From an uncultured Gemmatimonadaceae bacterium (GTDB lineage Bacteria; Gemmatimonadota; Gemmatimonadetes; Gemmatimonadales; Gemmatimonadaceae), in contig CAWAGQ010000002.1 in assembly GCA_963781585.1 (NCBI GenBank), forward strand, positions 96,001 through 160,000: a DNA stretch of 64,000 bases, given 5' to 3'. The position numbers were made by a program, and so were the translations under genes. The notes under the pieces were generated by a model. It did not search any database, had not been told where the DNA came from, and saw only the letters and a list, made by a program, of their open reading frames with translations. Of the stretch, positions 120-61,781 are shown piece after piece. The stretch's first letter is position 1. Each line of letters opens with the position of its first letter.

Positions 120-1034
120 TCACCCCGCCCGCGCCGGCTGGGCGCCCCTTCGCGCGCCCGCCTTCGGCGTGAGCGGGCGCAACCGCTGCGCCCCTTCCCA
201 CGCGAGCATCGCGCGCTTCCGCTCCAGTCCCCAGTGGTAGCCGCCTAACGCGCCGGTGTTCCGCAGCACGCGGTGGCACGGGATCACGAACGCCACCGGG
301 TTCCGGCCCACCGCCGTCCCCACCGCGCGCACCGCGCGCGGCGACCCGATCGACGCCGCCACGTCCTCGTACGTCGTCACCGTGCCGGCCGGGATGCGCA
401 ACAGGGCCTCCCATACCTTCACCTGGAAATTCGTGCCGCGCACCAGAAGGGCGAGTGGCACCAGTGCCGCCGGCTCACGAATCTCCAGGGGAGTGAAGAT
501 CCGCCGGGCCACGGGTGCGGTAGCCCGCGGTCGGTCCTCGATCGTCGCGTTGGGCCAGCGTTCCGCCAGCTCCGCCATGGCGGCCGACCGGTCATCCTCG
601 AAGAACGACAGCCCGCAGATGCCACGGTCGGTGACGGCCAGCAGACACTCGCCGAACGGCGTCTCGTGAACGCCGGCGCTGATGCGCAATCCGCTGCCGC
701 TCGTGCGATACTCTCCCGGTGTCACCGCCTCGAGCGTCACGAACAGATCGTGAAGCCGGCCGCCACTCGACAATCCGGCGTCGTAGGTGGCGTCCAGGAG
801 ATTGCGCGACTGTCGCAGCAGGCCCTTGGCGTAGCCGAGCGCGAGCAGCTGGGAGAACCGTTTGGGGCTGATGCCGGCCCATCGGGTGAACAGCCGCTGG
901 AAATGAAACGGGCTCAGGCCCACATGTCGCGCCACGTCATCGAGGCTCGGCTGTGCCGGAGCACGCGCATCGAGATAACGGATTGCGCGCTCGATGCGAT
1001 GGTAGTCGGTGGTGTTGGATTCGGAGACAGGCAT
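120..1034 (-). CDS. AraC-HTH / O6-methylguanine-DNA methyltransferase (Ada/Ogt-like bifunctional protein)
   Basis: N-terminal AraC-type HTH (LSPFHFQRLFTRWAGISP); C-terminal Ogt domain with GTNFQVKVW and active-site IPCHRV. Confidence 0.93.
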   Translation of the reverse strand: MPVSESNTTDYHRIERAIRYLDARAPAQPSLDDVARHVGLSPFHFQRLFTRWAGISPKRFSQLLALGYAKGLLRQSRNLLDATYDAGLSSGGRLHDLFVTLEAVTPGEYRTSGSGLRISAGVHETPFGECLLAVTDRGICGLSFFEDDRSAAMAELAERWPNATIEDRPRATAPVARRIFTPLEIREPAALVPLALLVRGTNFQVKVWEALLRIPAGTVTTYEDVAASIGSPRAVRAVGTAVGRNPVAFVIPCHRVLRNTGALGGYHWGLERKRAMLAWEGAQRLRPLTPKAGARRGAQPARAG

Positions 1035-1143
1035 GGTTCACTCGCGGTGTGCAGCGAGATCTAGCGTCACGTGGGGGCAGGGCCAACCCGGATCTTGCGA
1101 CGCCGACACTCCGGTGGACGCGGGCTCGCAAACGTCGCTTCAA

Positions 1144-1206
1144 TCAACTAATACTCTAGTTGACAAGCCAAAAGGCGTGCGGTAGGTTCTACTAAACTGC
1201 TAGTAG
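1144..1206 (+). promoter_or_regulatory. sigma70-type promoter of the blaI-blaR1 operon flanked by two palindromic operators
   Basis: TTGACA (1160-1165), 17 nt spacer, TAGGTT (1183-1188); inverted repeats TCAACTA-N6-TAGTTGA (1144-1163) and CTACTA-N6-TAGTAG (1189-1206). Confidence 0.75.
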
Positions 1207-1245
1207 CACGGGTTGCGTCCGCCGGTCGCGGTTTCAGTTTGACCA

Positions 1246-1298
1246 GCCTTTGGCCTTTGGCCTTTGGCCTTTGGCCTTTGGCCTTTGGCCTTTGGCCT
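1246..1298 (+). repeat. heptamer tandem array (GCCTTTG)x7
   Basis: Seven perfect copies at 1246-1294 plus a partial copy, ending 5 nt before the ATG at 1304. Confidence 0.95.
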
Positions 1299-1687: not shown

Positions 1688-3099
1688 TCGTTATCCTGGC
1701 ATACGGCACGCTGATCGCTCTCTGCGCGGCCGTCTGTGCGCTGGCGCTGGAGCCGTTGCTGCGTGCCCTGGGATGGGGTACGCGCTGGCTCTGGTGCGCC
1801 GCGCTCGGCGTGAGCGTACTCGGAATGGCAGCCGCGATGTTCGTCCCGCTCCGTTCCGGCAGTGACGCCCCGTCTCCCCTCGCGCCGCAAGGGACCGCTG
1901 TTGTCTCCCTGGGCCACGAGTCATCGAACGGCATGGCGCTGCCCGCCTGGGGGCGCCGCCTCGATAGCGGTATTGCGGTTACCTGGGCGGCGGTGAGCGC
2001 GGTGATGTTCGGCGTCCTGTTTGCCGGGAAGCGACGCATCGACCGGGAACGACGGCGCGCGCGGCCGCTCGCCGGCAGCGGCGCGGCGGTGCTCGTGACG
2101 GAAGACCTCGGACCGGCGGTCGCCGGATTTGTCCGGCCTGCGGTCCTGGTTCCGCGCTGGGTGTTCACGCTTGAGCCCGTTCCACGCCGGCTGTTGCTGA
2201 CGCACGAAATCGAGCACCTGCGAGCCGGTGACGGGCGGCTGCTGTGGGCGGGCGCGGTCGCGGCGGCAATCCTGCCGTGGAATGCCGCCGTCTGGCTGCT
2301 GGCGCGTCGCCTTCGGCTGGCGGTGGAGGTCGATTGCGACGTGCGGGTGCTGGCCCGGATGCCCGACGTGCGGGCCTACGGGGATCTCCTCCTCATCACC
2401 GCCGCTCGGCGCGCGTCGGTTCGCGCCTCGGCGCTGGCCACCGTGCCCGGTGCTTCCACTGATCTTTCCCGGAGGATACACGCCATGATCGACCGTCGTC
2501 CGCTCTCGAAGCGTTGGCCCATCGTCCGCATCGCCGTCGCGTTAGGTGCCGTGGTCATCGCCTGCGAGTCGCCGAGGCCGGAGCCGGTCGCACCCGTCGA
2601 CTTTGCCACCGGGTTGGCCAGGGCCGGCACCAGCGACACGCTCCCCAGGGGCTATCGCGAGGTCCCAGTCCTGAAGGCATCCGACTCGGCGTTCGTGGAC
2701 TACCTTCGGCGGCTGCATCCGGAACTGCTCTCCACGACCTCCACCAGTCCCGTGGTGCGCGTCTTCACCTACGCCGGTCAACTGGTCAAGGTCGGTCGGG
2801 CGGACCCGCACGCGAACTTCATGAAGACGCTTTCCCCGAACGACATCCTGAGCATCGAGGTGATCAAGGGGCGACGGCTGCCGGCGGGGCTCAGCGGCGG
2901 CCTGATCACCATCACGCTCAAGGATCCGGTTGGAGCGCTGCCGGCCAAGCCGGCGGCGGAACACGTGTGGGACAACGGGCAGGTTCGCCGTCGCATCGGC
3001 GACGTGCCGGAACGGCGCGGCACCCCAACGGTCGTGCTTCGTGAGATTGGCAGGGTGCCGAGGATCCTGCAGAAGGGAGACACCAGCTCCCCCCGCTAA
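1684..3099 (+). CDS. BlaR1/MecR1-like M56 metallopeptidase signal transducer
   Basis: TM segments, GPAVAGFVRPAVLVP, HEIEH zinc motif, EVDCD, LSRRIHAM. Confidence 0.88.
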   Translation: MIVILAYGTLIALCAAVCALALEPLLRALGWGTRWLWCAALGVSVLGMAAAMFVPLRSGSDAPSPLAPQGTAVVSLGHESSNGMALPAWGRRLDSGIAVTWAAVSAVMFGVLFAGKRRIDRERRRARPLAGSGAAVLVTEDLGPAVAGFVRPAVLVPRWVFTLEPVPRRLLLTHEIEHLRAGDGRLLWAGAVAAAILPWNAAVWLLARRLRLAVEVDCDVRVLARMPDVRAYGDLLLITAARRASVRASALATVPGASTDLSRRIHAMIDRRPLSKRWPIVRIAVALGAVVIACESPRPEPVAPVDFATGLARAGTSDTLPRGYREVPVLKASDSAFVDYLRRLHPELLSTTSTSPVVRVFTYAGQLVKVGRADPHANFMKTLSPNDILSIEVIKGRRLPAGLSGGLITITLKDPVGALPAKPAAEHVWDNGQVRRRIGDVPERRGTPTVVLREIGRVPRILQKGDTSSPR

Positions 3100-3485: not shown

Positions 3486-5375
3486 TCAATAGTCCACGGG
3501 CCGCAGATAGGACTCGCCGATCGCCGTGTGACTCAGGAGCGCGACGGTCGGCAGCTTGCGCTTCCAGTGCGTTCCCTCGAGCCGGTTGCGGACCAGCTCC
3601 ACCTCGAACTGGTCGAACCCGCGGGACCCGAGATCGGCGACCGAGTATCCCCACAGCAGCCAGTTCAGAATCGAGTCCGCCTTCGCGTAACTGATGCCGA
3701 GGTCCGTCTCGTCGGTCTGTCCATCGACCAGGTCGGCTGTCGCCGGTTTGGTAATGATCTCCTCGGGCACGCCGAGGTGGCGCGCCAGGGCCCAGACCTG
3801 CGTCTTGAAGAGATCACCTAGCGGATTGATGGGTGGCGAATCGTCGGCGTGCCAGGTGAAGTACCCGAACAGGCGCTCGGTCTTGTTCCCGGTGCCTAAC
3901 GGGACGCCCCGCTCCGCCGCCGACAGATCGAACAGGGCGATCATCCGCATCCGGGAGATCACGTTTCCGCGCCGCGTGCCGTCGGCCGTCGGCTCCTGCG
4001 CCAGGTAGCCGTCCACCGCCGCCGTCAGGTCGATGGTGCGGGTGCGGATGCCGAGCGCGTCGATCACCATCTGCGCATGCGCGAGACTGTCGGGCCGCGA
4101 AGTGCGGTACGGCAACCGAACCCCGAGCACGTTGTCGGCCCCGATCGCGCGCGCGGCCAGAAACGTTGTCACGGCCGAGTCCACGCCTCCCGACAGGCCG
4201 ACGACGGCGCGCTCGAAGCCACGTCGCTGCATCTCGTCGCGAATGAAGCGGACGAGCCACTCTTCGACCATGGGTGCGTCGATGTCGAGCGATGGCGGCT
4301 GGCCATGCTCGACGCAGGGCACGTGCAACGCGGGAATGATCCGGCTGGCGTTCGATTGGTTGTGCTCGACCGCGGCCGGCGCACCAGATTCCCTGTCGGG
4401 GGGGGCCCCCCAGGCTCCTGATTCCGGCGACGGCCGCTCCTCCGCCGGATCGAACGCCGCCATCGCCCCCTCCCCCCGTTCCACCGCCTCCATGGCCCGA
4501 TGCAGGTGCGGCAGCGCCGTGCGCAGATCCGACAGCAGGGGCATATCCGCCCGCGCCCGGGCGATGTCGCCAAGGTCGATCGCGAGCGTCACGATTGCCT
4601 CGTCGAACGCCGGCGCCCGCACCCGCAGATCGCCACGAGGACCGGCCACGCATGATCCGCCGGCAAAGACCTTCCCGCCTTCGCTTCCCGCCAGGTTGGC
4701 CAGCGACACAAAGACCCCGTGTTCATCGGCCATGTCCCGCACCAGACGCTCCCAACGCGCCACGCTCCCCGGGCCCGGCACCCCGTCCAGCGACTGCAGC
4801 CCGCGTGCCGGCGCGGCCGACGCGAGAAAGATGATCTGTGCGTCATCCAGCGCCGCGATCGCGCTCGAGAGGCTGTGCCAGGCGTCCTCGCAGATCAGCA
4901 TCGCCGCGCGTCCCCATGGCGTGTCGAATGCACGAATATCGTGCCCCCGCTCGACAAACCGTTCCTCGTCGAACAGGCCGTACGTCGGGAGGAAATTCTT
5001 GCGATGCACGTGCAGCACCCGAGGCGCCCCCTCGCCAAGCCGGACGTACGCCGAACTGTTGTACAGCGTGTCGCGCCACCGCTCGTAAAAGCCTACCACC
5101 ACGTCAAGAGGGCGCCTGGCCCGCTCATCGCCGATGCTCTCCTCGTAGGCCGCATCCAGGTCGCGGGCCACCGTCCCCGCCGTCACCGCCACGTCTCGCA
5201 CCCCCCCCTCGACGAAGTAGCCGCTCAGCACGGTCTCCGGGAAATGCACTACGTGCGGATGCGGCGACAGCATGCGCAGTTGCGCAAATACGTCGCTCAG
5301 GCGCGCGAGGTTCGCCTCGTAGTCGCCTTTGAACGGGTGCAGCTGCGCGATGGCCAGGGTGAGCAGCCGGGACAT
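3486..5375 (-). CDS. nadE: glutamine-dependent NAD+ synthetase
   Basis: Nitrilase domain (FPE, HRKNFLP, ICED) plus synthetase domain (GLSGGVDS, GTGNKTE, PLGDLFKTQV, GQTDE). Confidence 0.93.
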   Translation of the reverse strand: MSRLLTLAIAQLHPFKGDYEANLARLSDVFAQLRMLSPHPHVVHFPETVLSGYFVEGGVRDVAVTAGTVARDLDAAYEESIGDERARRPLDVVVGFYERWRDTLYNSSAYVRLGEGAPRVLHVHRKNFLPTYGLFDEERFVERGHDIRAFDTPWGRAAMLICEDAWHSLSSAIAALDDAQIIFLASAAPARGLQSLDGVPGPGSVARWERLVRDMADEHGVFVSLANLAGSEGGKVFAGGSCVAGPRGDLRVRAPAFDEAIVTLAIDLGDIARARADMPLLSDLRTALPHLHRAMEAVERGEGAMAAFDPAEERPSPESGAWGAPPDRESGAPAAVEHNQSNASRIIPALHVPCVEHGQPPSLDIDAPMVEEWLVRFIRDEMQRRGFERAVVGLSGGVDSAVTTFLAARAIGADNVLGVRLPYRTSRPDSLAHAQMVIDALGIRTRTIDLTAAVDGYLAQEPTADGTRRGNVISRMRMIALFDLSAAERGVPLGTGNKTERLFGYFTWHADDSPPINPLGDLFKTQVWALARHLGVPEEIITKPATADLVDGQTDETDLGISYAKADSILNWLLWGYSVADLGSRGFDQFEVELVRNRLEGTHWKRKLPTVALLSHTAIGESYLRPVDY

Positions 5376-5655: not shown

Positions 5656-7707
5656 GTGTTACTGCCTCGAATTCTGCCCGCGGCGCTCAGGCGCCGGGCG
5701 CGCGCCATCCGCCCGGCGCTGCTCCTCGTCACCGCGCTGTCGCAGGCCACCGCGCAGCAATCCCGACCCTCCTCAGGAGAGCCGTGGCAGATCATCCAAC
5801 CGCTCCAGTCCACCTTCGTCTTCGCGCGTGACGGCTCGCTCATCGGCGAGATCGGTCGTGAGTGGCGGTCGAGCATCTCCATCCGCACCCTGCCGAAATA
5901 CGTGCCCGAGGCGTTCATAGCGGTCGAGGATCAGCGGTTCTATCAGCACGACGGTGTCGACATCGTGGGACTCGCGGGCGCCATCAAGGACGCGGTCCGT
6001 GGGAGTCCGCGCGGCGCCAGTACGATCACGCAGCAGCTCGTAGGGAACATGCATCCCGACATCATCGATCGCCGGGACATCAGTATCGGGCGCAAGCTGC
6101 GCGAGCAGGCCGCCGCGCGAGAGATGGAGAAGCACTACACGAAGGAGCAGATCCTCGAGGCGTATCTCAACCAGCTCGACTTCGGCCACCGCTGGTTCGG
6201 CATCGAAACCGCCGCACGCCACTATTTCGGAAAAGGCGCGGCGCAGCTTTCGGTCGCGGAGGCCGCGACGCTGGCCGCCATCATCAATGGCCCGAGCTAC
6301 TACGATCCGATGACACACCCCGATCGGGCGCGCGGCCGGCGCAATCTCGTCCTGTCGCTCATGGCGGACCAGAAGTACCTGACCGCTGAACAAGCAGCCG
6401 CCGCGCGGCGCGAACCCCTGGAGATCGCGAAGGACGGAGGCTACGCCGCCCCTTCGCCGTACTTCGTGGACGTAGTGCGTATTCAGGCCGAGCGCGCCGG
6501 TGTGCCGGTCACCGCCGGAGGCTATCGTGTCTACACCACGCTCGATCCCACGCTGCAGCGCGCTGCCGTCACTGCCCTGGTCGACGGAACGCTCGAGATC
6601 GAACGCCAGCCAGGCTATCGGCATCCCACCTTTCAGAAACGGACACCGGGAAAGAGCGACTATCTGCAGGGCGCCGTGGTCGCCCTCGATCCGTTCACCG
6701 GTGATGTGCGGGCCCTGGTCGGCGGCCGCGACTACGGGGCCTCGTCATTCGACCGGGCGATTGATGCGATGCGCCAGCCCGGTTCGGCGTTCAAGCCGAT
6801 CGTCTACGCCACCGCCATCGCCGACAGCCTCCCCCCGAACCTCGTCGTACCTGACACCGCCATCGCCATTCCGCTACCGAACCATACGGTCTACAAGCCG
6901 GAGAACTCGGACGGCGCGTACCTCGGCAACCTGACCATGCGCGAAGCGCTCGCGCGCTCGCGCAACGTGGTCGCCGTGCAGATCGGCCAGCGGGTAGGCA
7001 TGGAATCGGTCATCGCGACGGCGCGAAGCATGGGAATCACCGCTCCCATCGAGCCCTATCCCTCCAGCGCGATCGGCGCCGCCGCCGTGCAGCCGCTCGA
7101 TCTCGTGGCTGCCTACGCGACGATCGCGAACCTCGGCGCGCGCGTCGAGGCACGGTTCGTCACGTACATCGAGGATGCCGCGGGACATACCGTCTGGCAG
7201 AACCCCATTGTCCAGCCGCAAGAGGTGCTCGACCCACAGGTCGCCTTCATCGTCCGTGACATGATGCGGGACGTGGTGGAGCGCGGCACCGCCACCGTGG
7301 TCCGGCGCTTCCTTCCGGAGTCGGTGCCCGTGGCCGGGAAGACCGGCACGACCAACGACAACGCCGACGTCTGGTTCGTCGGCATGACGCCCGACCTCGT
7401 GGCCGGCGTGTGGCTCGGCTTCGATCGACCTGCTCCCATTGCGCCCGGCGCCGCGGGCGGCACGCTGGCGGCCCCGATCTGGGGCAGGATGCTGGCGCTG
7501 GCGGGTGAGACCGGCGCCGGAGCGCCGTGGTCGCCGCCGGCGCAGCTGGTGTCGGCCGACCTCGATCGCGACACTGGTCAGCCGGTGACCGTCCTTACTC
7601 CGCCAGACCGCCGCTACACGGAGTACTTCCTCTCCGGAACCGAGCCGCTCTTCCTGCACCTCGACTCCTGGTCGCTCTTTCGTGGTCGTGCGCTCCAGCC
7701 TCGTTAG
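5656..7707 (+). CDS. class A penicillin-binding protein (PBP1A family)
   Basis: Transglycosylase EDQRF, GASTITQQ, RKLRE; transpeptidase SAFK, SRN, KTG. Start GTG 5656 inferred. Confidence 0.92.
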   Translation: MLLPRILPAALRRRARAIRPALLLVTALSQATAQQSRPSSGEPWQIIQPLQSTFVFARDGSLIGEIGREWRSSISIRTLPKYVPEAFIAVEDQRFYQHDGVDIVGLAGAIKDAVRGSPRGASTITQQLVGNMHPDIIDRRDISIGRKLREQAAAREMEKHYTKEQILEAYLNQLDFGHRWFGIETAARHYFGKGAAQLSVAEAATLAAIINGPSYYDPMTHPDRARGRRNLVLSLMADQKYLTAEQAAAARREPLEIAKDGGYAAPSPYFVDVVRIQAERAGVPVTAGGYRVYTTLDPTLQRAAVTALVDGTLEIERQPGYRHPTFQKRTPGKSDYLQGAVVALDPFTGDVRALVGGRDYGASSFDRAIDAMRQPGSAFKPIVYATAIADSLPPNLVVPDTAIAIPLPNHTVYKPENSDGAYLGNLTMREALARSRNVVAVQIGQRVGMESVIATARSMGITAPIEPYPSSAIGAAAVQPLDLVAAYATIANLGARVEARFVTYIEDAAGHTVWQNPIVQPQEVLDPQVAFIVRDMMRDVVERGTATVVRRFLPESVPVAGKTGTTNDNADVWFVGMTPDLVAGVWLGFDRPAPIAPGAAGGTLAAPIWGRMLALAGETGAGAPWSPPAQLVSADLDRDTGQPVTVLTPPDRRYTEYFLSGTEPLFLHLDSWSLFRGRALQPR

Positions 7708-9205
7708 GCTCGGAACTCCACTCTGCTGGTACGTGATGGCGGGGCTCACGGGAGCCTGCCGGGACAATCCCGCCGGCCCCCCGCCTGACGCCACCCTTAC
7801 ACTGGCCACGTCCGGCGTTCCGGGTGTGGTGGGAACGGCGGTCGTGCCCGTGCCCACCTTTGTCCTCCGCGATGCCGGCGGCCGCGCGCTGACCGGCTTT
7901 CCGGTATCGATCGCCGTGGATGCGGGCGGCGGCACCCTTCGCAATGCCCCGCGCGGCACCACCGCCGGCCCCACGCCGGTGGGTGAATGGATCCTCGGCC
8001 CGAGCGCCGGGCAGAACGCGCTCGTCGTCCGGATCGGCGCGCTCCCGCCCCTCCGCATCGAAGTCACCGCCGTGCCTGATGCGCCGGTCGACATCACGCC
8101 GGAATTCGGAACGGAGCAGGCGGGCTTCGCGGGCGACGACCTGCCGCAGCCCCTGGCCGCAAAGGTCTTCGATCGGTTCGGCAATGGCGTGCCGGGTGTC
8201 GTCGCCACGTTCGCGGTGGAGGCCGGCGGCGGCAGCCTGTCGGAATCCAGCCTGACCACCGATGGAAACGGCATCGCAGGAGGTCTGACCTGGCACCTCG
8301 GACGCAACGGGGGAAATCAGGTTGTCACCGCGACGGCCAATGGGTTGACGACGACCTTCACCGCCACCATTCGATCCAGCTTCGATCCGGTCGTTCGCTT
8401 CGTCGGCGGCGCGCCGTCACCGACCGTCGCCGCGGCGTTCGAGTACGCCGCGCAGCGCGTGCACGCGGCGATCACCGGCGACATCCCTGACGTCGCGGTC
8501 CAGGGTTTCGATCTCGCTCGCTGCGGGATCTCGGCTCCATCGCTGACCGAGGTGGTGGACGACATGGTCATCTATGCCGTGGTGGCCCCGATCGATGGCA
8601 CCGGAGGGACTGTCGGCTCCGCCTTCCCGTGCGTGCAGCGGACGCTTTCGGGCCATACCGTCATCGGTATCATGCGATTCGACGAGGCCGACCTTGATGC
8701 ACTCGCGCTGACCCAGCGACTCAACGCCGTCGTTCTCCACGAGATGTTCCATCTGGTCGGCGTCGGCATCCTCTGGAATACCGTGGGGCTCCTCGCCGGG
8801 AGCGGCACCGGCGATCCGCGATTCCTCGGTAACATCGCCACCGAGCGCTGCGTGCTGCTCGGCGGCGAGACGCCGTGTGGCATCGGGAGCGTTCCGGCGG
8901 AGAACATCGGCGGTCCGGGAACCGTCGACTTGCACTGGCGAGAGTCGGTCTTCGACTCCGAGCTGATGACCAGCTTCCTCGAGGTGACGCCCAGCATGCC
9001 GCTGTCGGAGATGACCCTCGCATCGCTGGCCGATCTTGGCCTGACTCCCAATTACCGGGCGGCAGACCCCTACGTGGTTCCCGCTTCATCTCCCGGCATC
9101 GCCCCACGTCTGAACGCAATTCCGAGCGCTCGCTGGGAGACGATCCTGCCGCCGCGTTTCGAGGTCACTCCGGAAGGCTGGGTCCGTCCGATCCGGGTGA
9201 AGTGA
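7682..9205 (+). CDS. lipoprotein with Ig-like domains and a leishmanolysin-like (M8) zinc peptidase domain
   Basis: Lipobox-like LTGAC, Big-like repeats, HEMFH, HWRESVFDSELMT, LASLADLG. Confidence 0.8.
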   Translation: MVVRSSLVRLGTPLCWYVMAGLTGACRDNPAGPPPDATLTLATSGVPGVVGTAVVPVPTFVLRDAGGRALTGFPVSIAVDAGGGTLRNAPRGTTAGPTPVGEWILGPSAGQNALVVRIGALPPLRIEVTAVPDAPVDITPEFGTEQAGFAGDDLPQPLAAKVFDRFGNGVPGVVATFAVEAGGGSLSESSLTTDGNGIAGGLTWHLGRNGGNQVVTATANGLTTTFTATIRSSFDPVVRFVGGAPSPTVAAAFEYAAQRVHAAITGDIPDVAVQGFDLARCGISAPSLTEVVDDMVIYAVVAPIDGTGGTVGSAFPCVQRTLSGHTVIGIMRFDEADLDALALTQRLNAVVLHEMFHLVGVGILWNTVGLLAGSGTGDPRFLGNIATERCVLLGGETPCGIGSVPAENIGGPGTVDLHWRESVFDSELMTSFLEVTPSMPLSEMTLASLADLGLTPNYRAADPYVVPASSPGIAPRLNAIPSARWETILPPRFEVTPEGWVRPIRVK

Positions 9206-17675: not shown

Positions 17676-17676
17676 G

Positions 17677-50915: not shown

Positions 50916-50926
50916 GGGTTGTTGGG

Positions 50927-51024: not shown

Positions 51025-51042
51025 GGCCTCCGACGCGAACGC

Positions 51043-52263
51043 CTAACGCGTGACATCGGCCGGCCCGAAATGGAGCTCGCCCTGCATCCCTGCCTCGGTC
51101 GCCGCAGAGGCGCGCGGCGCTCCAACGCGCCCGCCGCCTCCAGGTGCCCGCCCGCCGGGCACGATCGCCGTGGCCCGGAATGCCAGCGGCTCCTCCGCAC
51201 CCTCCTTCTCCACCCCGTAGCGGATGCCAGCCTCCCGGCACTGCCGGCGCAGAAAGCGCCGCAGCCCATCCCGATACCGGTCGCTCATCTGATGGCTCTC
51301 CGCGTACGCGGCCCGATACCGGGCGGCCAGATCGGGAAACTCCGCTTCGATGAACGGGAGATAGCGATGCCGCGCCGTGGCCTGCAGCCGGAGCGCGCAG
51401 GCGCTGACGTGGGAGGCGCCCGCACCGGCCACGCGCCTGACGAGCTCGCGCAACATCCCGGGCCGGTCGGTCAGTCCGGGCAGCACCGGCATGATGTTCA
51501 CCCCCGTATCGATGCCGGCGGCCGACAGGCGCGCCACGGCCCGGAGCCGCGCCTCCGGCGTCGGCGCCCGCGGTTCGATGCGGCGGGCCAGCTCGCGATC
51601 GAGCGTGATGAGCGACACGTGCACGGTGAGCGCCGACCGCGCCACGAGCGCCGTCAGGATGTCGATGTCGCGCGTAATGAGCGGACTCTTGGTGACGATC
51701 CCCACCGAGAGTCCGCGCTCCGCCGCCAGGACCTCGAGGATCGCGCGAGTGACGCGAAAGGTCCGTTCCGCCGGTTGATAAGGATCGGTCGCCGTGCCGA
51801 TCGCGATTCGCTCTCCGGTGGTCAATCGGGTGAGACGATCGGCGAACGCGCGCCGGCTCCGCGAATGGCGCGCAGCATCCCGGGCGCGCAACTGCATGCG
51901 CAACACCTCGGCTGCGTTCCGCTTGACGAAGATCCGCCGCTCGAATGCCAGCCACGGCGGCAATTCGGTGAGTTCTTCGGCAACCGTTGCGGCTGGCGCA
52001 GTCGCCACCGTGCGCTCGGCGGCATACCGGTGCGCATAGCGCGCATAACAGTAGGCGCACCCGAACGCGCAGCCCACGTAGGGGTTGATCGACCAGAATT
52101 CCATTCCGGTCGATTCCGGCGGGTTGAGCACCCCCTTCGCCACTGTGTCGTAGTAGCGAATGTCCTTGCGGGTGCCGATCAGGCCCGGGATCGGACGATG
52201 CCGGCCGGCATCGTCAGCCTGGCTCACGGGAAAGAGGGAAGGGCTCACCAGGTTGTGGCTCAT
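51043..52263 (-). CDS. radical SAM protein (SplB/Rv2578c-like DNA repair family)
   Basis: INPYVGCAFGCAYCYA (CxxxCxxC), GTATDPYQPAE, TKSPLITRD, IEPRAPTP. Confidence 0.9.
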   Translation of the reverse strand: MSHNLVSPSLFPVSQADDAGRHRPIPGLIGTRKDIRYYDTVAKGVLNPPESTGMEFWSINPYVGCAFGCAYCYARYAHRYAAERTVATAPAATVAEELTELPPWLAFERRIFVKRNAAEVLRMQLRARDAARHSRSRRAFADRLTRLTTGERIAIGTATDPYQPAERTFRVTRAILEVLAAERGLSVGIVTKSPLITRDIDILTALVARSALTVHVSLITLDRELARRIEPRAPTPEARLRAVARLSAAGIDTGVNIMPVLPGLTDRPGMLRELVRRVAGAGASHVSACALRLQATARHRYLPFIEAEFPDLAARYRAAYAESHQMSDRYRDGLRRFLRRQCREAGIRYGVEKEGAEEPLAFRATAIVPGGRAPGGGGRVGAPRASAATEAGMQGELHFGPADVTR

Positions 52264-53873: not shown

Positions 53874-53989
53874 CAGCGCAGCGGACCGGTCTCTCCCGGC
53901 GTATCTTTGGACGACCGCGATGCCGGGAAGGGCCGCGGCTCGCCTGCCTAACGCTGTGTCGTCTCCGCCACGCCTTGCCGGAATCCGCG

Positions 53990-54280
53990 ATGGCTCATCC
54001 GCTGTCGGACATCGAAATCCAGCGCGAGCTGGGGGCGCTCTCCGGCTGGTCCCGCCGCGGCCCCGCCATCACCCGCACGTTCGAGTTCGCCGGCTTCCGG
54101 GACGCCATCGCGTTCGTGAACCGGATCGCCGATGCCGCCGAGCGGATGGATCATCATCCGGATATCGACATCCGCTACACCCGGGTCACGTGCCAGCTCA
54201 GCACGCATTCGGCGGGAGGCATCACCCGCCGCGATTTCCTGCTGGCCGCGGCGATCGACCAGGCGGTCGAGCCGTCCTGA
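53990..54280 (+). CDS. pterin-4-alpha-carbinolamine dehydratase
   Basis: AERMDHHPDI, LSTHSAGGITRRDF. Confidence 0.92.
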   Translation: MAHPLSDIEIQRELGALSGWSRRGPAITRTFEFAGFRDAIAFVNRIADAAERMDHHPDIDIRYTRVTCQLSTHSAGGITRRDFLLAAAIDQAVEPS

Positions 54281-54389
54281 CCCGGGGCCGGGTGGCCACT
54301 TTACAACGGCCGGAGCTATCCCTAGGAAGGAAACGACCCGCTGGCCTAATTCGCGATCGCGTCGGCGGCGCGCTCCGGACGGAGACGCG

Positions 54390-55074
54390 TCAGGAGTTCC
54401 GGCGGCCTCCTCCCAGCAGACTCAGGATCGCGACGAACATGTTCAGCAGGTCCAGATAGATCGCGACCGCGGCCAGAACGTAGTCGTCGGGCCCGAATCG
54501 ATTCCGCAGCCGCCAGGTGTCGAAGATCAGCAGCCCGCCGAACACCAGCACCGCCGCCGCCGAGAGCCAGAGCGACGCCGTCGCGCTCCGCACGAAGATG
54601 TTGATGAACGACGTGATGACCAGCACCCAGAGCCCGATCGTGAAGAACCCGCCCCAGGCGCTGAAATCGCGGCGGCTGGTCCAGGCGTAGACGGTGAGCA
54701 CGCCGAACGTGCTGGCGGTGATGAGCGCGGCCTGCCCCACGACCCCGGGCTGCGACTGCCCGTACACGTAGATCAACGGCGAGATCATCATCCCCGCGAT
54801 GAACGTGAACAGGAATACCAGGCCGATGTTGGCCGGGAACGCGTCACGGAAACGCTGCGCGGCGAACAACGGCGCGAACATGCAGATGAAGGTGATGATC
54901 GGGTGGGCCGCAACCGCCTGCAGGACGGCCGGCTGACTCGAGCGCGAACGCGGTGCCGGCCATGGTGACGAGCACGCTCGCCAGGACGAGCAGGTAGGTG
55001 CGCCGCACCAGCGTCGCGCGCTGCTCGCCGGTGCGAACCACGGTGGCATCAATGGGCCGATACGAGACACCCAT
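54390..55074 (-). CDS. Bax inhibitor-1/YccA family membrane protein, frameshift near 54940
   Basis: LVRRTYLL; multiple TM helices; IFDTW, IYLDLLNMF. Confidence 0.88.
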
Positions 55075-55208: not shown

Positions 55209-56032
55209 CTAGCGCTTCCGGATGTCGACGCTTCCGTTCACCGTGTGAAGCTGCAGCGTGCGTCCCCCTTTGCCGATGGTCGCGCGGATGTGCCGCGGAT
55301 TGATCCGGCCATTGAGGGTCAGCGGGAAATCGGATCCGATCGACCCGTTCACCGTGGTGAGGTCGACGTCGGCGTCCACGCCGTCAGGCACGTACAGGGT
55401 GATCGACCCGTTCACGGTGCTGAAACGCTGGTCCCGGTCTCCGAGCGTGCCCATGCGCACCTCGACGTCGCCATTCACCGTCCCCGCGGTGACCGGGCCG
55501 CCTGACGACGTGGCCGTTACACGGCCGTTCACGGTGTGCGCGTCGACGTCCGAGGTCGCGCCGTCGATATCCAGCGCGCCATTGACCGAGCTCACGACGA
55601 GCTTCACCCCTTCCGGCAGGTGGACGGTGAACTCGACCGACACCTCGTCGTCACGGTGCGCCTGTTGTTTCCGTGCACGTCGTACCCGTCCTCGTCGCAG
55701 CTCGTATTGTCGTACCAGATCGCGCAGACGATGACGTCGCCGGCGGAACCCACCTGGCGCTCTTCGATCCGCACGTCAGGCGAATTGCTGTGGCGCCGCG
55801 TGTCGGATGACTGGCGCGAGTTGCCGCCGACCCACTTCACTCCTGTCACTTCGGCGCGGTCTCCCGATGCGCGGTCCACCTGGATCGGGCCATTGAGGTT
55901 GCGCACGTAGAGCCGCTGTCCCGCCGGGATGACGCCGGTCCAGTGGAACGTGGAGTCGGTGGCGCGTTCCTGAGCGCCGAGGATCGGTGCCGCCGCGATG
56001 AGCGCGGCGAGGATGACGGAAGAGGATTTCAC
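55209..56032 (-). CDS. DUF4097 beta-repeat secreted protein, frameshift near 55650
   Basis: Signal peptide; NLNGPI, SVNGAL and repeated TVNG motifs. Confidence 0.8.
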
Positions 56033-57113: not shown

Positions 57114-57126
57114 TGTCGGGAATTCG

Positions 57127-57924
57127 TCAGGCGCGCGGCGGCAGCAGGGCCACCGTGCGCAGGAGCCCGAGTTTCTTCTCGAGCACCTTGTTGAGTTGAT
57201 CGGTCAGGAACGCGCTGGCCGGATCACCGGCCAGCGCAGCGCGGGCGTCGTTGATCGCCCGGTCGATCGTCGCCAGGCTGTTCTCGACCACCGCGACCGT
57301 GCCCGGATCGAGATCCTGGCGTCGCACGTCGAGGATGCCGCGGAGCTGGCCGATGGCCTGATCATAAGTGACCGTGGCCGGGACCGGCGTGCGAGTGGCC
57401 GCGGGGATCATCGTGCCGCGCGCGCCCGCGCCGGACGGGGCGATGTCGGGCGAGAGGGGCGCGACGCCGGATCCGGCGGCCGCCAGCGGGCTGCCCACTG
57501 TGGTGTCACCGCCGGGGGCTCCGCGGCCAGCCGATGCGACGGGCGACTCCGGCGTGAGTCCTGAAGTTCGCGTCGCCATCAGATACGTCAGCGTCGCGGT
57601 GGCGGCGATGAGGGCCGCGGCGGCTACGCCCAGCCCAACCGAACGTGACACGCGGAACCGCGGACGCGTGCGCGGTTCGAGCACCATCACCGGCGCCGCG
57701 ATTCGTCCCGCGATGCCCTCCCACAAGTCGCGGGATGGCTCCAGCGCGGAAAGCGCGCCGGCGTCGCGCCGGATGCCCTGGAGATCGCGCACCAGCCCAG
57801 CGCACCGCAGGCACGCGCCGAGATGCGCGTCCACGGATGCACGTGCCGGCGCGTCCAGTTCGTCTTCGAGATAGCGCGCGAGCACGCTGTCGAGCTGCGC
57901 GCAGGTCATCGCGTTGTTGGTCAT
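57127..57924 (-). CDS. zinc-finger (ZAS/zf-HC2) transmembrane anti-sigma factor
   Basis: MTC...HLGACLRC, one TM helix, C-terminal helical domain. Confidence 0.88.
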   Translation of the reverse strand: MTNNAMTCAQLDSVLARYLEDELDAPARASVDAHLGACLRCAGLVRDLQGIRRDAGALSALEPSRDLWEGIAGRIAAPVMVLEPRTRPRFRVSRSVGLGVAAAALIAATATLTYLMATRTSGLTPESPVASAGRGAPGGDTTVGSPLAAAGSGVAPLSPDIAPSGAGARGTMIPAATRTPVPATVTYDQAIGQLRGILDVRRQDLDPGTVAVVENSLATIDRAINDARAALAGDPASAFLTDQLNKVLEKKLGLLRTVALLPPRA

Positions 57925-58565: not shown

Positions 58566-59255
58566 CTACGGCGCGCGCCAACGGAGCCGGCGCACCAGAC
58601 GCGGGAGTTCCGTCGCCGCGTCGAGCGCGTAGCGGGCTCCCGCGTCCTCGAGCACCTTACGGGGGAACGCGCCCCAGAGTGCCGCCACCGGCGTGACGCC
58701 GGCGGCGCGCCCCGCCGCCATGTCGTAGGGTGAATCGCCGACAAAGATGGCGTCACCGGCGGATGCGCCGAGTCGCTCCAGAGCCAGGAGGACCGGTTCG
58801 GGCTCGGGCTTGTGCCGCTCGGTGGCGTCGCAGCCGATGACCAGCGGGATGTCATCCTGCAACCCGACATGTGCGAGCGAGCGCCGCGCCAGCGGTGTCA
58901 TCTTGCTCGTCACCACCGCCATCGCGCACTGCTCGTTGGCGAGCACCCGAACCGTCTCCACGATTCCCGGATACGCGCTCGTCAGGCGGTCGTGGTGCGC
59001 GAGCTGGAACTCCCGGTAAGTGACGATGAGTTCCTCCATCTCCTCCGGGGTGGAGGCGTAGGGGCCGAACTGGTCTACCAGTGGACGCCCGATTCCGGCG
59101 GCGAATTCCGCGGTACTCGGCGCGGGGCCCGGTCGTGAGGCGAACGCGTGGCGTGCGGCGCTCAGAATGAGCTCGATGGAATCGACCAGGGTACCGTCAA
59201 GGTCGAAGAGGACGGCGAAGGGGCTGCGCTCGGGCATGAGGGGGGCGAAGGGCAT
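58566..59255 (-). CDS. HAD-superfamily phosphatase (PpaX/Gph-like)
   Basis: FDLDGTLVDS, VVTSK, KPEPEP, VGDSPYD. Confidence 0.92.
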   Translation of the reverse strand: MPFAPLMPERSPFAVLFDLDGTLVDSIELILSAARHAFASRPGPAPSTAEFAAGIGRPLVDQFGPYASTPEEMEELIVTYREFQLAHHDRLTSAYPGIVETVRVLANEQCAMAVVTSKMTPLARRSLAHVGLQDDIPLVIGCDATERHKPEPEPVLLALERLGASAGDAIFVGDSPYDMAAGRAAGVTPVAALWGAFPRKVLEDAGARYALDAATELPRLVRRLRWRAP

Positions 59256-59256
59256 G

Positions 59257-59284
59257 GGCCATAGGCCGTAGGCCACAGGCCATA
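59257..59284. repeat. 4-unit heptamer array abutting the HAD start codon
   Basis: GGCCATA GGCCGTA GGCCACA GGCCATA. Confidence 0.85.
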
Positions 59285-59387
59285 ACGTACAACCCGTGTC
59301 CTGCCTCGGGTGGCGCGGAACCGGCCAGCCTGCCAGATCCTCCTTGCCCGGCTCGACTGCCGCCATGTCCTGGCCCGCCGACTCCCG

Positions 59388-61781
59388 TCACGTTCGAACG
59401 AGGCAGACCAACGCAATCCCCGACCCGACCCTGTTCCCGCCCGATGTCGGCGTGCGTTCGCGCACGATGGGGTCGATCAGCGTAATGAACTCCTGGAGCG
59501 CCGCCTCTGCGCTGTCCGTGCCGGGCACGGTCGCGGCGCCGTTGGCCCACTCGCCGAGCATGCGCTCCGCCCCCGCGCCTCGGACGGCAACCACCAGATC
59601 CCGGCATCGCGCCGCCAATTCGGTCAAGCGCGCCCGCCGGTGCCGCGGCGCCTGCGCGCGCAACTCCGCGATGCGGCGCAGCGCGCGCAGGTGCTCGCGT
59701 GAGGGCGATTCCCTGACCGGCGCCGCGAGCGCGGCACCGCGCTCCTGATCCAGCCATCCGGCCAGCGCCGAGCGCGCGGCGCGTATTGCTGCCCCGGCGG
59801 CCCGAGGCACACCGCTGCGCCTCGCGGCATGCTGCACCTGGACGCGCGCAACGCCGACGCGGCGCGCGATCTCCAGCACCTCGCGTGGATGCTCGCTCAC
59901 GCCATCGGGCGATATGGCGAGGAGCCGAACGCGCGACCCGACACGCGCCAGCGCGAGGGCCTGCCAGGGCCGGTCGATCCAGTCGGCGGCGATCGCGGCA
60001 GCCTGTGCCTGCCAGTGGCCCGAAAGGGGCACGATCACGTGACACGGATTCGCTGGCCGAGTGGTGCCGATGGATGCGCCAGGCACGACGGCGGCTCCGT
60101 GGCAGGAAATCTCGAGCGCGCGCCCCGGCGCACGACGCCACGTGGCCAGCACCGAACGAAGCGCCTCGCTCCAGCCCGTCAGATCGCTCTGCGGTGGACG
60201 GCTCGTCCGACCGAGGCGTTGGCCGAAAAGCGGTTCCTGTGACGCCACCTCGCTGGCGCCGAGCAGAGATCCGATGACTCTCGCCTTTCGCTGCAGGGCG
60301 CGGATCACGGAGACGAGGGCGCGCGCCTGCACAGGCGGTCCGATCGCATACACGTGCACGAGCTCGTGCGCCGCGCCAAGCCGTCTGACGCGTCCCAGTC
60401 GCTGCTCGAGTCGCGCCATGGTCCACGGCATGTCGAGGTGCACCAGCACCGCGGCGCCGTGGAGGTTCAGCCCCTCGCTGAGCACGTCGGTGGAGATGAG
60501 GAGCGTGAGCGGTAATCTCCCGTTCGCACGCTCCGTGGCACCGCCGAATTGCCGGACGATCTCGGCGCGCGGAACGGCTCCCGATGCGATGCGTGCTCCG
60601 CGCGCCGTGACCAGTGCCACGGCACCAACACGCTCCATGGACCGGTACATCGCCCGTGCCGTCTCGGCGAATTGCGAAAAGGCGACAATACGCTCGCCCG
60701 GATGTCGCGCCCGCAGGCGGCGAAGGTGGGCGACGCGCGCCGCGTCGCCATCGACCGATGCATTCAGTACGCGGAGCGTCTCGCGGATCCCGTGCACGTG
60801 GGCGTCGATCGCGGCACGCACCGCGGCGGCATCGGCCACGGCTTGCTCGCGCGCCACCAGTTCCGGGAAGGCCAGCTGCATGGCATCATCGAACAGCGTC
60901 CAGGCGGTGAGTTCGCGACGGGTGGGGAATCGGCCCGCGTCGAGCGCCTGGCTCAGGGCCGCGGCTCGGTGGAGGCGCCGGCGCAGCGAAGCGCGAAGCG
61001 CCGCATCGGATGAGGTCCACGTGCGGATGAGGCCGAGGCGGATCAGCGCGGCGGCGGCACCGCTGTCGGCCGGCGGCACCGGCGGCGCGAGCTGCTGGAG
61101 CGCGCGCAACACCACGGGGGCAGCCGGGATGGGCAACCACCGCGGTCGCGACACCCGCGGCAGCGTCGCGCCACTGGTGAGCGCGCCGTGTCCGCGGCGG
61201 ACGATCAGCCGGGACAGCTGTGCCTCGCCTAACGTATGAGCGCGTGCGCCAAGGAAGAGCGCCAGCTGCCCGCGCAACTCGGCCGCACGGTTGTGGATCG
61301 GCGTCGCCGACAGGAGCAGCACACGGGCCCGCACGGCGAATCTCGCCAGCGCGTCATAGCGTTGTGTACGCGAATTCCGCACGTGATGGGCTTCGTCGAC
61401 GATGATGATCGCGTCGCGTGGTGCCGGCTCCGGGCGCTTCCGGCTCAGCGACTCGAAGGACAGGAAACGCCCCGCCAGCCCGCTGACGCCCAGGGCGTCG
61501 GCCCAGAGGCCGCGGAGCGATGCCGGGCCCACGACGAAGAACGCGTCGAACTCCCGGGCGACGGCGAGGGCGGTGTACGTCTTGCCCATCCCGACCTCGT
61601 CGGCCAGCATCGCGCCGCCGAAGTCGGCGATGATCTCGCGCAGCCTGGCGACGGCGTCGGTCTGGTGCGGGGCCAGCGTGATCGCGCCGAGCGAGGGCCG
61701 CGCGCGGGCATCGCCGAGCCAGGCGCGCGCCATGTGATCGAGCAGGGCGTCGGGATCGCACGACTTCAGCGCGTCATCCAT
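59388..61781 (-). CDS. SNF2-like SF2 helicase/translocase
   Basis: PHQ, ADEVGMGKT, DEAH, SATP, STDVLSEGLNL, EQRLGRVRR; start overlaps the MTase stop. Confidence 0.88.
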   Translation of the reverse strand: MDDALKSCDPDALLDHMARAWLGDARARPSLGAITLAPHQTDAVARLREIIADFGGAMLADEVGMGKTYTALAVAREFDAFFVVGPASLRGLWADALGVSGLAGRFLSFESLSRKRPEPAPRDAIIIVDEAHHVRNSRTQRYDALARFAVRARVLLLSATPIHNRAAELRGQLALFLGARAHTLGEAQLSRLIVRRGHGALTSGATLPRVSRPRWLPIPAAPVVLRALQQLAPPVPPADSGAAAALIRLGLIRTWTSSDAALRASLRRRLHRAAALSQALDAGRFPTRRELTAWTLFDDAMQLAFPELVAREQAVADAAAVRAAIDAHVHGIRETLRVLNASVDGDAARVAHLRRLRARHPGERIVAFSQFAETARAMYRSMERVGAVALVTARGARIASGAVPRAEIVRQFGGATERANGRLPLTLLISTDVLSEGLNLHGAAVLVHLDMPWTMARLEQRLGRVRRLGAAHELVHVYAIGPPVQARALVSVIRALQRKARVIGSLLGASEVASQEPLFGQRLGRTSRPPQSDLTGWSEALRSVLATWRRAPGRALEISCHGAAVVPGASIGTTRPANPCHVIVPLSGHWQAQAAAIAADWIDRPWQALALARVGSRVRLLAISPDGVSEHPREVLEIARRVGVARVQVQHAARRSGVPRAAGAAIRAARSALAGWLDQERGAALAAPVRESPSREHLRALRRIAELRAQAPRHRRARLTELAARCRDLVVAVRGAGAERMLGEWANGAATVPGTDSAEAALQEFITLIDPIVRERTPTSGGNRVGSGIALVCLVRT

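Follow-up and report, generated by a model that had tools for sequence, protein, structure and literature searches.

We analysed 64,000 nucleotides of DNA from an uncultured Gemmatimonadaceae bacterium (GenBank assembly GCA_963781585.1, contig CAWAGQ010000002.1, positions 96,001 to 160,000 of the forward strand; this whole stretch is the window below, numbered from its first letter), through which the asymmetric heptamer CCTAACG and its octamer extension GCCTAACG are scattered. The octamer occurs about 20-fold above chance in a narrow group of soil bacteria that includes the cultured Gemmatirosa kalamazoonensis, and our results support a dispersed signal at the level of DNA, neither a peptide nor a codon signal. 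A sequence-only reading of the window had listed 26 heptamers; all 26 coordinates are correct, as are the strand split (15 forward, 11 reverse) and the 22 copies that extend to GCCTAACG. Its chance estimate of 6–7 heptamers and ~2 octamers overshot, and the true enrichment exceeds what it stated: dinucleotide shuffles of the window, which has a GC content of 68%, yield a mean of 2.25 heptamers (largest 6, with 0 of 100 shuffles reaching 26) and 0.96 octamers (largest 4). The word also stays an outlier under an order-3 Markov model (3.06 heptamers and 1.08 octamers expected), the type of null that the earlier reading had proposed. Among all 6- to 10-mers of the window scored with this model, GCCTAACG is the top dispersed word (22 versus 1.08), and the words that outscore it come solely from 7-bp tandem arrays. 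A maximal-order Markov model expects 21.2 copies and so trivially 'explains' the count, because the sub-words are almost confined to the motif itself (26 of 29 CTAAC and 26 of 27 CCTAAC in the window lie inside CCTAACG). The over-representation of CCTAACG and GCCTAACG is confirmed as real. Around the copies, flanking sequence carries no information beyond positions -4 to +1, which indicates that the copies do not belong to any longer repeat. Descent from a longer repeat or mobile-element remnant was rejected on the uninformative flanks in both the window and Gemmatirosa and because no repeat family of the window includes the word; an RNA gene or tRNA origin was rejected because the window contains no tRNA and no Rfam match.

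We took advantage of the Lon protease gene of the window to survey relatives, taking one genome per species, and obtained 76 loci. The best match (85% identity) is a 22.5-kb locus, L001, from a Gemmatimonadaceae metagenome-assembled genome, followed (57–82%) by other Gemmatimonadaceae and Longimicrobiales. L001 holds 8 heptamers against 0.7 expected and 7 octamers against 0.25, and the word is enriched in none of the other 75 Lon loci (0–3 heptamers each), in which the one-mismatch form GCCTGACG, pooled, likewise stays at expectation (70 versus 66.8). The phylum-wide scope that the earlier reading had contemplated thus shrinks to the closest relative among these loci. None of 15 Gemmatimonadota loci has a comparable dispersed 8-mer of its own, and across the 64 loci of at least 10 kb the strongest 8-mer besides that of L001 is AGCGCATC in Bradyrhizobium (14 versus 2). 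This last word occurs in the Bradyrhizobium loci L074 and L030 at 14 and 13 copies per 22 kb, where ~2 are expected.

The cultured carrier, G. kalamazoonensis KBS708, was sampled through 300 kb of plasmid 1 and 50 kb of plasmid 2 (megaplasmids, not chromosome). Plasmid 1 has 203 copies of GCCTAACG against 9.18 expected, or 0.68 per kb, with the leading G present in 203 of 204 heptamers, and plasmid 2 has 20 against 0.64. Its occurrence on both sampled megaplasmids suggests that the force behind the word acts genome-wide. We compared the window with these plasmids, and it is not part of them. The word is limited to a narrow Gemmatimonadaceae clade comprising the window organism, the L001 organism and Gemmatirosa. 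Plasmid 1 also contains direct repeats of the word 7 or 12 bp apart, of the form CGTTAGGC-N4-CGTTAGGC or the overlapping CGTTAGGCGTTAGGC (examples, from L077–L082, are at 22094–22113, 53014–53033, 75154–75173 and 207499–207513; two have the identical spacer CGCG).

The word seems to be undescribed, in agreement with the earlier reading, which had not recognised it: we found no description in print, in a search that lay outside bioRxiv supplements and subscription journals, so that a mention elsewhere is possible. Among the matches listed, the octamer string returned primer-type uses and Gemmatirosa combined with over-representation terms returned no Gemmatirosa text; 'Gemmatimon' combined with the heptamer returned an unrelated match only.

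Reading frames, variants and turnover

Genes in the window were called by a self-trained score of codon log-likelihood, and 56 candidate open reading frames (ORFs) were compared with Pfam; these approximate calls give a coding set of 44 segments with 17,591 codons and 43 stop codons. The genes of the Gemmatirosa plasmids, whose records carry no annotation, are likewise our own calls. Within the 44 coding segments we count 14 heptamers against 1.01 (maximum 5) and 12 octamers against 0.38 (maximum 3) in 300 within-gene shuffles of synonymous codons, a null that is conservative because it retains the TTA codons. The word thus remains an outlier under the codon shuffling that the sequence-only reading had suggested. 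Nor are TTA codons equally common outside its context: the window has 16 among its 17,591 codons, and 11 of these sit in xCG-TTA-GGx, leaving 5 elsewhere. The thirteen TTA-leucine copies claimed earlier come down to these 11 firm ones and a twelfth, possibly a thirteenth, among the two copies of ambiguous frame in the imuA/B region. Seven copies supply stop codons, as had been said, and give 8 of the 43 stops (six as CGT-TAG-G, two as GCC-TAA-CG), the copy at 33610 terminating two convergent genes at once. One copy reads CTA-ACG, again as described; two rather than three read CCT-AAC, and three rather than two lie outside called genes. In essence the earlier tallies hold.

The word is therefore found in all usable frames, in stop codons and in non-coding DNA, and these features, together with its synonymous origin, bear out the view that the signal lies in the DNA and not in the protein. 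The frames are indeed several, as the earlier reading held, but they are used unevenly. About a quarter of the [SPTA]-L-G tripeptides that could carry the word in the Leu-Gly frame do so in each genome (11 of 47 in the window, 75 of 305 in Gemmatirosa). The Pro-Asn frame has the highest occupancy (2 of 11–12 and 47 of 88, respectively) and the Leu-Thr frame a low one (1 of 37 and 5 of 118), and the Val-Arg frame (GTT-AGG), which needs two rare codons, is nearly empty (0 of 45 and 5 of 192). In Gemmatirosa 138 in-gene copies compare with 7.5 after synonymous shuffling, and the word contains 75 of the 103 TTA codons, 19 of the 30 TAA stops and 13 of the 51 TAG stops.

Analysis of the 24 one-mismatch neighbours of GCCTAACG in the window identified GCCTGACG as the sole standout (19 versus 5.09). 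We refer to the two as the A-form (GCCTAACG) and the G-form (GCCTGACG). Inside genes the G-form exceeds its count in the 300 synonymous shuffles (15 versus 4.70, maximum 12), so it is not a product of codon usage, and it too is written through rare codons, taking 5 of 28 opportunities as CCT-GAC, 3 of 28 through TCA and 2 of 45 through AGG. Both forms have the same upstream preference, G at -1 and a pyrimidine at -2; with the pyrimidine (YGCCTRACG) there are 38 copies where 3.86 are expected, and with a purine (RGCCTRACG) 3 where 2.3 are. The octamer of the earlier reading stands but is too narrow as a definition, and the motif of the window is the wider YGCCTRACG. Two-mismatch neighbours are not enriched in the window (537 versus 563). 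The G-form is co-enriched in L001 (8 versus 1.8) and not raised in Gemmatirosa (19 versus 13.8), where the raised variants are GCCTAACA (23 versus 3.8), GCCTAACT (12 versus 2.2) and GCCCAACG (34 versus 9.9). The tolerated variants, or 'dialects', therefore differ between lineages.

The word has no strand polarity. GCCTRACG occurs 41 times in the window, 23 times on the forward and 18 times on the reverse strand; the split is 4:4 in L001 and 85 forward to 118 reverse on Gemmatirosa plasmid 1, which has 61% of its coding bases on one strand. Relative to genes, the G-form is unbiased in the window (8 versus 7), and the Gemmatirosa copies divide 93 versus 77 by transcription direction. A transcription-strand bias, apparent in the window because CGTTAGG lies mostly on the sense strand, was rejected once opportunities were counted (11 of 92 versus 3 of 48, p 0.38). 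The Gemmatirosa copies are spaced more regularly than chance would have it (coefficient of variation (CV) 0.84 versus 0.87–1.14), and close pairs fall below the random number (9 versus 13.2).

Comparison with L001 over the syntenic block (window positions 2,089–24,788) bears on the origin of the copies. Of eight window copies in this block, two have an L001 counterpart at the same place: the NadE copy at 3895, identical in the alignment, and the PBP1 stop at 7702, matched through the synteny coordinates. At 17670 the L001 copy is reversed in orientation and shifted by a few bases, four copies align to non-motif L001 sequence and one falls outside the alignments. Where the protein is conserved the differences are synonymous, in Lon as well as in a kinase in which the window has TCG-TTG-GGT and L001 TCG-TTA-GGC. 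Eight [S/P/T/A]-Leu-Gly tripeptides are shared; both genomes carry the word at one, only the window at two, only L001 at one and neither at four, so that one of four motif-bearing sites is conserved, the pattern predicted by independent occupancy of about a quarter. Conservation of position in orthologues, which the sequence-only reading had named as a check, was poor between the window and L001 (2 of 8 kept, a small sample). These alignments indicate that copies arise by synonymous point substitutions and turn over between relatives. A route by deamination of methylated CGTCAGGC to CGTTAGGC was rejected because the orthologous codons are Leu, not Ser TCA.

Proposed uptake role and rival explanations

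Given a sharp, orientation-neutral word with steady occupancy, turnover, dialects and even spacing in Gemmatirosa, we favour, tentatively, a tag like the DNA uptake sequence (DUS) of Neisseriaceae or the uptake signal sequence (USS) of Pasteurellaceae, one that may have been built by biased DNA uptake and recombination. We hold with somewhat greater reserve the fuller proposal that GCCTAACG/YGCCTRACG is the uptake (self-recognition) sequence of the Gemmatirosa-related clade, independent of DUS and USS, with lineage dialects, and read by a minor pilin or another receptor of the competence surface. The word would be a recognition word in double-stranded DNA, driven to about one per 1.5–3 kb on every replicon. 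A receptor of the type IV pilus or competence surface would prefer fragments that bear it; such fragments would enter the cell and recombine into the chromosome, and alleles with the word would replace alleles without it, a form of molecular drive. Copies would then accumulate where they are cheap, at synonymous [S/P/T/A]-Leu-Gly and Pro-Asn sites, in spacers and at gene ends, where the word has a stop codon to offer in either orientation (TAA or TAG, according to strand). Binding of the word, natural competence and biased uptake are steps that we infer.

If this reading is true, natural transformation with a preference for self DNA exists in a soil phylum, and the word is a third, unrelated uptake word. 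An abundant and barely cultured phylum would be transformable by nature, and adding the word to donor DNA would provide a practical handle for genetics in Gemmatirosa, of which a cultured and fully sequenced carrier strain (KBS708) exists. The clade would also be a natural experiment on genome-wide drive over codon bias, given that in Gemmatirosa the word claims ~70% of the TTA codons and 63% of the TAA stops. Should an intracellular binder be found instead, the word would be a new nucleoid-organising site, and either way it is a ready marker of native versus foreign DNA in the clade.

The window encodes a candidate receptor component, an orphan type IV minor pilin of the GspH/FimT family at 27860–28285 (-), 141 residues from the Met at 28285. 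It matches PF12019 (Pfam E value 1.2e-8), has a prepilin N-terminus and no cysteines, and has genes for a DEAD helicase and PFK as neighbours. Among 208 homologues found, mostly of 139 residues, the C-terminal SRLGR[V/A]RR (GRxR) is invariant in 30 of 30 aligned, and changes at near-invariant positions, such as Arg122 to Lys, are common to the window pilin and its closest relative (89% identity). The predicted model (predicted local distance difference test score 92.7) has FimU (4ipu, template-modelling (TM) score 0.63–0.65) and EpsH as its best PDB matches. Orphan location and a C-terminal GRxR are given as hallmarks of the DNA-binding pilin FimT in the available text of PMC8897410, and with its domain and prepilin N-terminus the window protein has the features of FimT. 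According to the accessible part of PMC12616744, annotation places ComN, the predicted USS receptor, in the GspH/FimT family too. The pilin is circumstantial support for an uptake role of the word.

Several observations weigh against an uptake tag. Enrichment of ~20-fold is 10–20 times weaker than the 180–390-fold of true DUS and USS, and the word measures 8–9 bp where DUS has 10–12 and USS 9 plus flanks. The spacer and terminator excess of those systems is missing: non-coding DNA holds 3 of 26 window copies, Gemmatirosa has 0.78 copies per kb in spacers versus 0.66 in coding DNA (1.2 times, a slight excess), and inverted-repeat pairs number one in the window and two of hairpin type among 203 Gemmatirosa copies. 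About half of the uptake elements named 'DUES' lie in terminators, as far as the available text of 10.1101/2025.10.24.684340 goes. Spacing in the window is clumped (CV 1.43), with 8 GCCTRACG copies in 1–32000 versus 33 in 32001–64000 (p 1e-4), a fourfold difference in density that tracks local GC (rho 0.69 in 4-kb bins). In Gemmatirosa CTA-ACG is filled at 4% versus 25% for TTA-GGC, though elsewhere CTA is just as rare as TTA; the low occupancy of CTA-ACG goes beyond what background codon rarity accounts for. In the window the pyrimidine at -2 cuts the opportunities in this frame to 12, of which one is filled. One-mismatch forms as a class are near expectation (51 versus 40 in the window, 245 versus 210 in Gemmatirosa), only particular neighbours being raised, and stand on this side too; the roughly 90-fold drop from perfect to one-mismatch uptake sequences in the available text of PMC1939737 would, at 20-fold enrichment, hide such forms, so their near-absence may say little against uptake. 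As to the pilin, FimT itself (7qyi) ranks 12th with a TM score of 0.47, below FimU, and binds DNA without sequence preference in the accessible part of PMC8897410; being widespread in Gemmatimonadaceae (208 homologues), the protein alone cannot explain a clade-specific word. Finally, we found no literature on competence in Gemmatimonadota and none joining Gemmatimonadetes with 'DNA uptake sequence'.

Some of the same evidence would suit an intracellular binding site akin to the highly iterated palindrome 1 (HIP1) of cyanobacteria, with an abundant protein that recognises the word on double-stranded DNA, a role in organising the nucleoid or chromosome, and selection for a density of about one site per 1.5 kb. 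We consider this unlikely, although it accommodates the even spacing in Gemmatirosa (CV 0.84), the use of both strands, the presence of the word on every sampled replicon and the regional variation of the window with GC (8 versus 33, rho 0.69), and ~20-fold falls within the 15–300-fold over-representation of HIP1. HIP1 sites are conserved, in the available text on that element, which describes its function as long unknown, whereas here positions are poorly kept (2 of 8) and fit independent occupancy. This reading has no candidate binder and fails to explain why close Gemmatimonadaceae (79–82% Lon identity) lack the word. HIP1 itself is now tied to transformation, which it enhances according to the accessible part of a 2026 preprint, so the gap between such a site and an uptake tag narrows. 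A bias in repair or gene conversion, with very-short-patch (VSP)-like mismatch processing converting near-cognates to a word that is itself functionless, is an improbable source. Turnover at an equilibrium occupancy, a sharp word with few enriched neighbours and its writing against codon preference are what such a bias would leave; it does not predict even spacing, however, and going from CTC or CTG to TTA takes two to three changes per site, which is hard for a bias acting on single mismatches. Known VSP systems act on short palindromic sites with 5-methylcytosine (m5C), and the simple deamination of CGTCAGGC to CGTTAGGC is excluded, both of which count against it.

A target of a methyltransferase or modification-defence system, on the Dam/CcrM analogy of the sequence-only reading, is very improbable. 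The word is asymmetric and in the window has R beside an invariant A (GCCTRACG), a layout that recalls the sites of MmeI- and BREX-type enzymes, and a methyltransferase gene of the fitting kind (DrmMI/Type IIG/PglX-like, 61766–64000) lies in the window with an SNF2 helicase. The published PacBio methylome of G. kalamazoonensis (same strain) lists only RGATCY, ATGCAC and CCAGN7TCA as N6-methyladenine (m6A) motifs, and so contradicts the analogy for m6A and N4-methylcytosine: the word is absent despite its 0.68 copies per kb. Its absence makes the methyltransferase and SNF2 helicase of the window an unlikely cause, and defence islands are volatile, yet the word is common to three diverged genomes. 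The methylome is that of a relative of the window organism, and m5C, poorly detected by the PacBio method, was probably missed in it. Hosts do not normally show an excess of their own modification targets. A polar recombination or segregation signal, such as Chi for RecBCD/AddAB or the FtsK-orienting polar sequences (KOPS) and SpoIIIE recognition sequences (SRS) for FtsK/SpoIIIE, would likewise be an over-represented asymmetric octamer found once per few kb, and DNA-repair genes of the window often carry the word, with 5 A-form copies in the imuA/B–dnaE2 cassette. The strand ratios of 15:11, 4:4 and 85:118 (the last following gene strand) make such a signal scarcely credible, as do its lack of G-richness and its use of the rarest codons, where Chi rides on common ones. 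Least credible of all is a translation-level signal, either bldA-like TTA control or a preferred stop context. The word does take 11 of the 16 TTA codons and 8 of the 43 stops in the window, and 75 of the 103 TTA codons and 19 of the 30 TAA stops in Gemmatirosa, but it is enriched to an equal degree where it reads CCT-AAC (47 of 88 opportunities in Gemmatirosa), in non-coding DNA and in either orientation to transcription (93 versus 77 in Gemmatirosa), and orthologues do not keep its TTA sites.

Copies in the window and their surroundings

From the left end of the window, the A-form at 243–250 (+) lies antisense to an Ada/MGMT gene, as GCG-TTA-GGC (A-L-G), and the heptamer alone at 2540–2546 (-) reads GCG-TTA-GGT (A-L-G) in a BlaR1 gene. 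NadE contains the A-form at 3894–3901 (+) as CCG-TTA-GGC (P-L-G), the site also occupied in L001. The A-form at 7702–7709 (-) is the stop of a PBP1 gene (CGT-TAG-GC) and has an L001 counterpart by synteny coordinates, without flanked alignment; the G-form at 7783–7790 (+) follows in an M8-like peptidase gene as CCG-CCT-GAC-G (P-P-D). In the Lon gene the heptamer alone at 11043–11049 (+) reads TCG-TTA-GGT where L001 has TCG-CTC-GGC, and the A-form at 11909–11916 (+) reads TCG-TTA-GGC where L001 has TCC-CTG-GGC. A first Ser/Thr kinase gene carries the A-form at 15212–15219 (+) as TCG-CCT-AAC-G (S-P-N) and ends on the heptamer at 15579–15585 (-; CGT-TAG-GA). A second has the G-form at 17159–17166 (+; CCG-CCT-GAC-G) and ends on the heptamer at 17670–17676 (-; CGT-TAG-GT), which abuts the TGA of a convergent gene at 17677–18192. 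The 13 kb from 17.7 to 30.7 kb, which have the lowest GC, hold no A-form copy; the syntenic part of L001 has two.

Outside called genes, the A-form at 30685–30692 (+) lies upstream of a helicase-like gene (30922–33615). This gene (+) and a GNAT acetyltransferase gene (-) overlap by 4 bp at 33612–33615 via TTAG, and the A-form at 33610–33617 (-) supplies both convergent stops, CGT-TAG to the former and GCC-TAA to the latter. The GNAT gene also reads the G-form at 33807–33814 (-) as GGC-CTG-ACG; a CGNR/ABATE gene ends on the A-form at 34222–34229 (-; GCC-TAA-CG), and a hypothetical gene reads that at 37387–37394 (+) as CGC-CTA-ACG (R-L-T). XdhC holds A-forms at 38283–38290 (-; TCG-TTA-GGC) and 38820–38827 (-; CCG-TTA-GGC) and a G-form at 39158–39165 (-; CGT-CAG-GCG). 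The sole inverted pair of the window has as its left arm the A-form at 41185–41192 (-), the stop of a NifU-MobA gene (CGT-TAG-GC), and as its right arm the non-coding A-form at 41218–41225 (+), 3 nt beyond the TGA of a convergent Big/DUF1573 gene; the 12-nt perfect arms, CGTTAGGCAGCG and CGCTGCCTAACG, enclose a 17-nt loop. A terminator role of this pair (41185/41225) was rejected, since the pair lacks a T-run and Gemmatirosa shows no excess of pairs of this type. The Big/DUF1573 gene has G-forms at 42701–42708 (+; GCG-TCA-GGC, with the rare TCA), 42877–42884 (-; CCG-CCT-GAC-G) and 43397–43404 (-; AGC-CTG-ACG), and another at 43820–43827 (+) lies outside the gene call, in a possible 5' extension of the ORF at 41228–44062.

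Within dnaE2 we find A-forms at 44609–44616 (-; GCG-CCT-AAC-G, A-P-N), 45639–45646 (+; ACG-TTA-GGC) and, in the N-terminal frame, 47225–47232 (+; ACG-TTA-GGC), with G-forms at 44731–44738 (+; CGT-CAG-GCA) and 47461–47468 (+; CTC-GTC-AGG-C, with the rare AGG). In the imuA/B region, the A-form at 49165–49172 (+) lies in the imuB-like part of the ORF at 48094–50940 and reads GCG-TTA-GGC in that ORF; that at 49506–49513 (+) is ambiguous, reading GTT-AGG in the same ORF or TTA in the ORF at 49167–49691, and the frame of the G-form at 50732–50739 (+) is unsettled. A radical-SAM gene ends on the A-form at 51041–51048 (+; CGT-TAG-GC) and contains a G-form at 51435–51442 (+; CTC-GTC-AGG-C), and an amidase gene contains an A-form at 52888–52895 (-; GCG-TTA-GGC) and a G-form at 52966–52973 (-; TCG-TCA-GGC). 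The A-form at 53946–53953 (+) is outside gene calls and would read CCT-AAC if the ORF at 53920–54459 were real, for which the coding score is unfavourable. A DUF4097 gene holds G-forms at 55382–55389 (-; GTG-CCT-GAC-G) and 55500–55507 (+; TCG-TCA-GGC); the G-form at 55774–55781 (-) is outside called genes, that at 57125–57132 (-) is the stop (GCC-TGA-CG) of an anti-sigma-like gene (57127–57924), and that at 58980–58987 (-) reads CGC-CTG-ACG in a HAD hydrolase gene. Near the right end, the SNF2 helicase gene contains the A-form at 61227–61234 (+; ACG-TTA-GGC) and the N6-adenine methyltransferase gene the G-form at 62584–62591 (-; CCG-CCT-GAC-G).

The 7-bp tandem arrays form one family (AGGCCAA, AGGTCAT, AGGCCAT or AGGCCAG; 5 to 14 units) and lie at 1246–1298, 28431–28457, 45069–45157, 46280–46325, 47995–48080, 50927–51023 and 59249–59284. 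Most stand directly upstream of or across gene starts (blaI, the FimT-like pilin, dnaE2, the imuA/B ORF and the HAD hydrolase gene), two are inside dnaE2, and the arrays could be a slippage-based switch. We count 7 arrays in the 64 kb of the window, 3 in the 22.5 kb of L001, 8 in 223 kb over the full set of 17 Gemmatimonadota loci and 12 in 1,066 kb of outgroup loci. The dnaE2 (imuC) gene at 44283–48040 (-) occupies two frames, as ORFs 46043–48040 and 44283–47108, with the switch between 46211 and 46561, at the imperfect array 46280–46325; the 89-bp array at 45069–45157 is an in-frame insertion between the finger and HhH domains. The split may reflect phase variation of the gene, a frameshift that made it a pseudogene, or faulty assembly. 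The adjoining imuA/imuB region at 48094–50940 (-) is one ORF of 948 residues, of which the C-terminal half weakly matches models of Y-family polymerases and along which the codon-usage score favours differing frames; it may be an imuA/imuB cassette with further frameshifts or atypical codon usage.

At 59388–64000 (-) lies an SNF2 helicase gene (DrmD/DpdE-like, below family cut-offs) and, upstream of it, a gene for a large N6-adenine methyltransferase (Eco57I/MmeI-type, with DrmMI and Type IIG as best PADLOC hits) that extends past the window edge; the two probably belong to a defence locus resembling DISARM or Type IIG systems. A 32-bp tandem repeat (19144–19243; 3.1 copies, 98% matches) is found at the 5' end or upstream of an alpha/beta-hydrolase gene (18297–19118), and a weakly matching homologue of the baeRF-family/MSMEG_1130-like 'ribosome hibernation factor' (20692–22567) adjoins an Hsp20 gene.

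Comparison with known systems

The closest likeness is to uptake sequences (DUS GCCGTCTGAA and USS AAGTGCGGT, jointly 'DUES'), which are also short, asymmetric and hugely over-represented, at about one per 1–3 kb. With genomes of ~1.8 and ~2.2 Mb, Haemophilus influenzae and Neisseria gonorrhoeae carry 0.8–0.9 uptake sequences per kb. The available text of PMC1939737 counts 1471 and 1965 copies, respectively, where fewer than 10 are expected, with 65% and 35% in ORFs, and describes even spacing, no orientation bias and evolution by point mutation; the same text regards sequence-specific uptake as experimentally established in only two proteobacterial families. The word shares with DUS and USS the lack of orientation bias, the origin by point substitution, the tolerance in 'cheap' gene frames, the restriction to a clade with dialect-like variants and, in Gemmatirosa, the even spacing. 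It belongs to a different phylum, and unlike DUS and USS it places an AT-rich core in genomes of 68–72% GC, where it takes most TTA codons and many TAA and TAG stops.

HIP1 (GCGATCGC) is likewise a hyper-abundant octamer inside genes, but it is a palindrome, whereas GCCTAACG differs from its reverse complement CGTTAGGC. Two methyltransferases recognise HIP1, and the present word is absent from the one available methylome; HIP1 is phylum-wide and conserved in position, and the word is confined to a narrow clade and turns over. The MmeI/Eco57I-type sites of Type IIG, BREX PglX and DISARM DrmMI enzymes share its asymmetry and the degenerate purine by an invariant A, and differ from it in not being over-represented in their hosts. 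Chi and KOPS are over-represented asymmetric octamers as well, but the word lacks replication-linked polarity and is based on rare codons. As with the bldA system of Streptomyces, the setting is a GC-rich genome in which TTA is exceedingly scarce; unlike there, the TTA codons here are a by-product of a DNA word that occupies several frames and spacers and is not conserved at orthologous sites.

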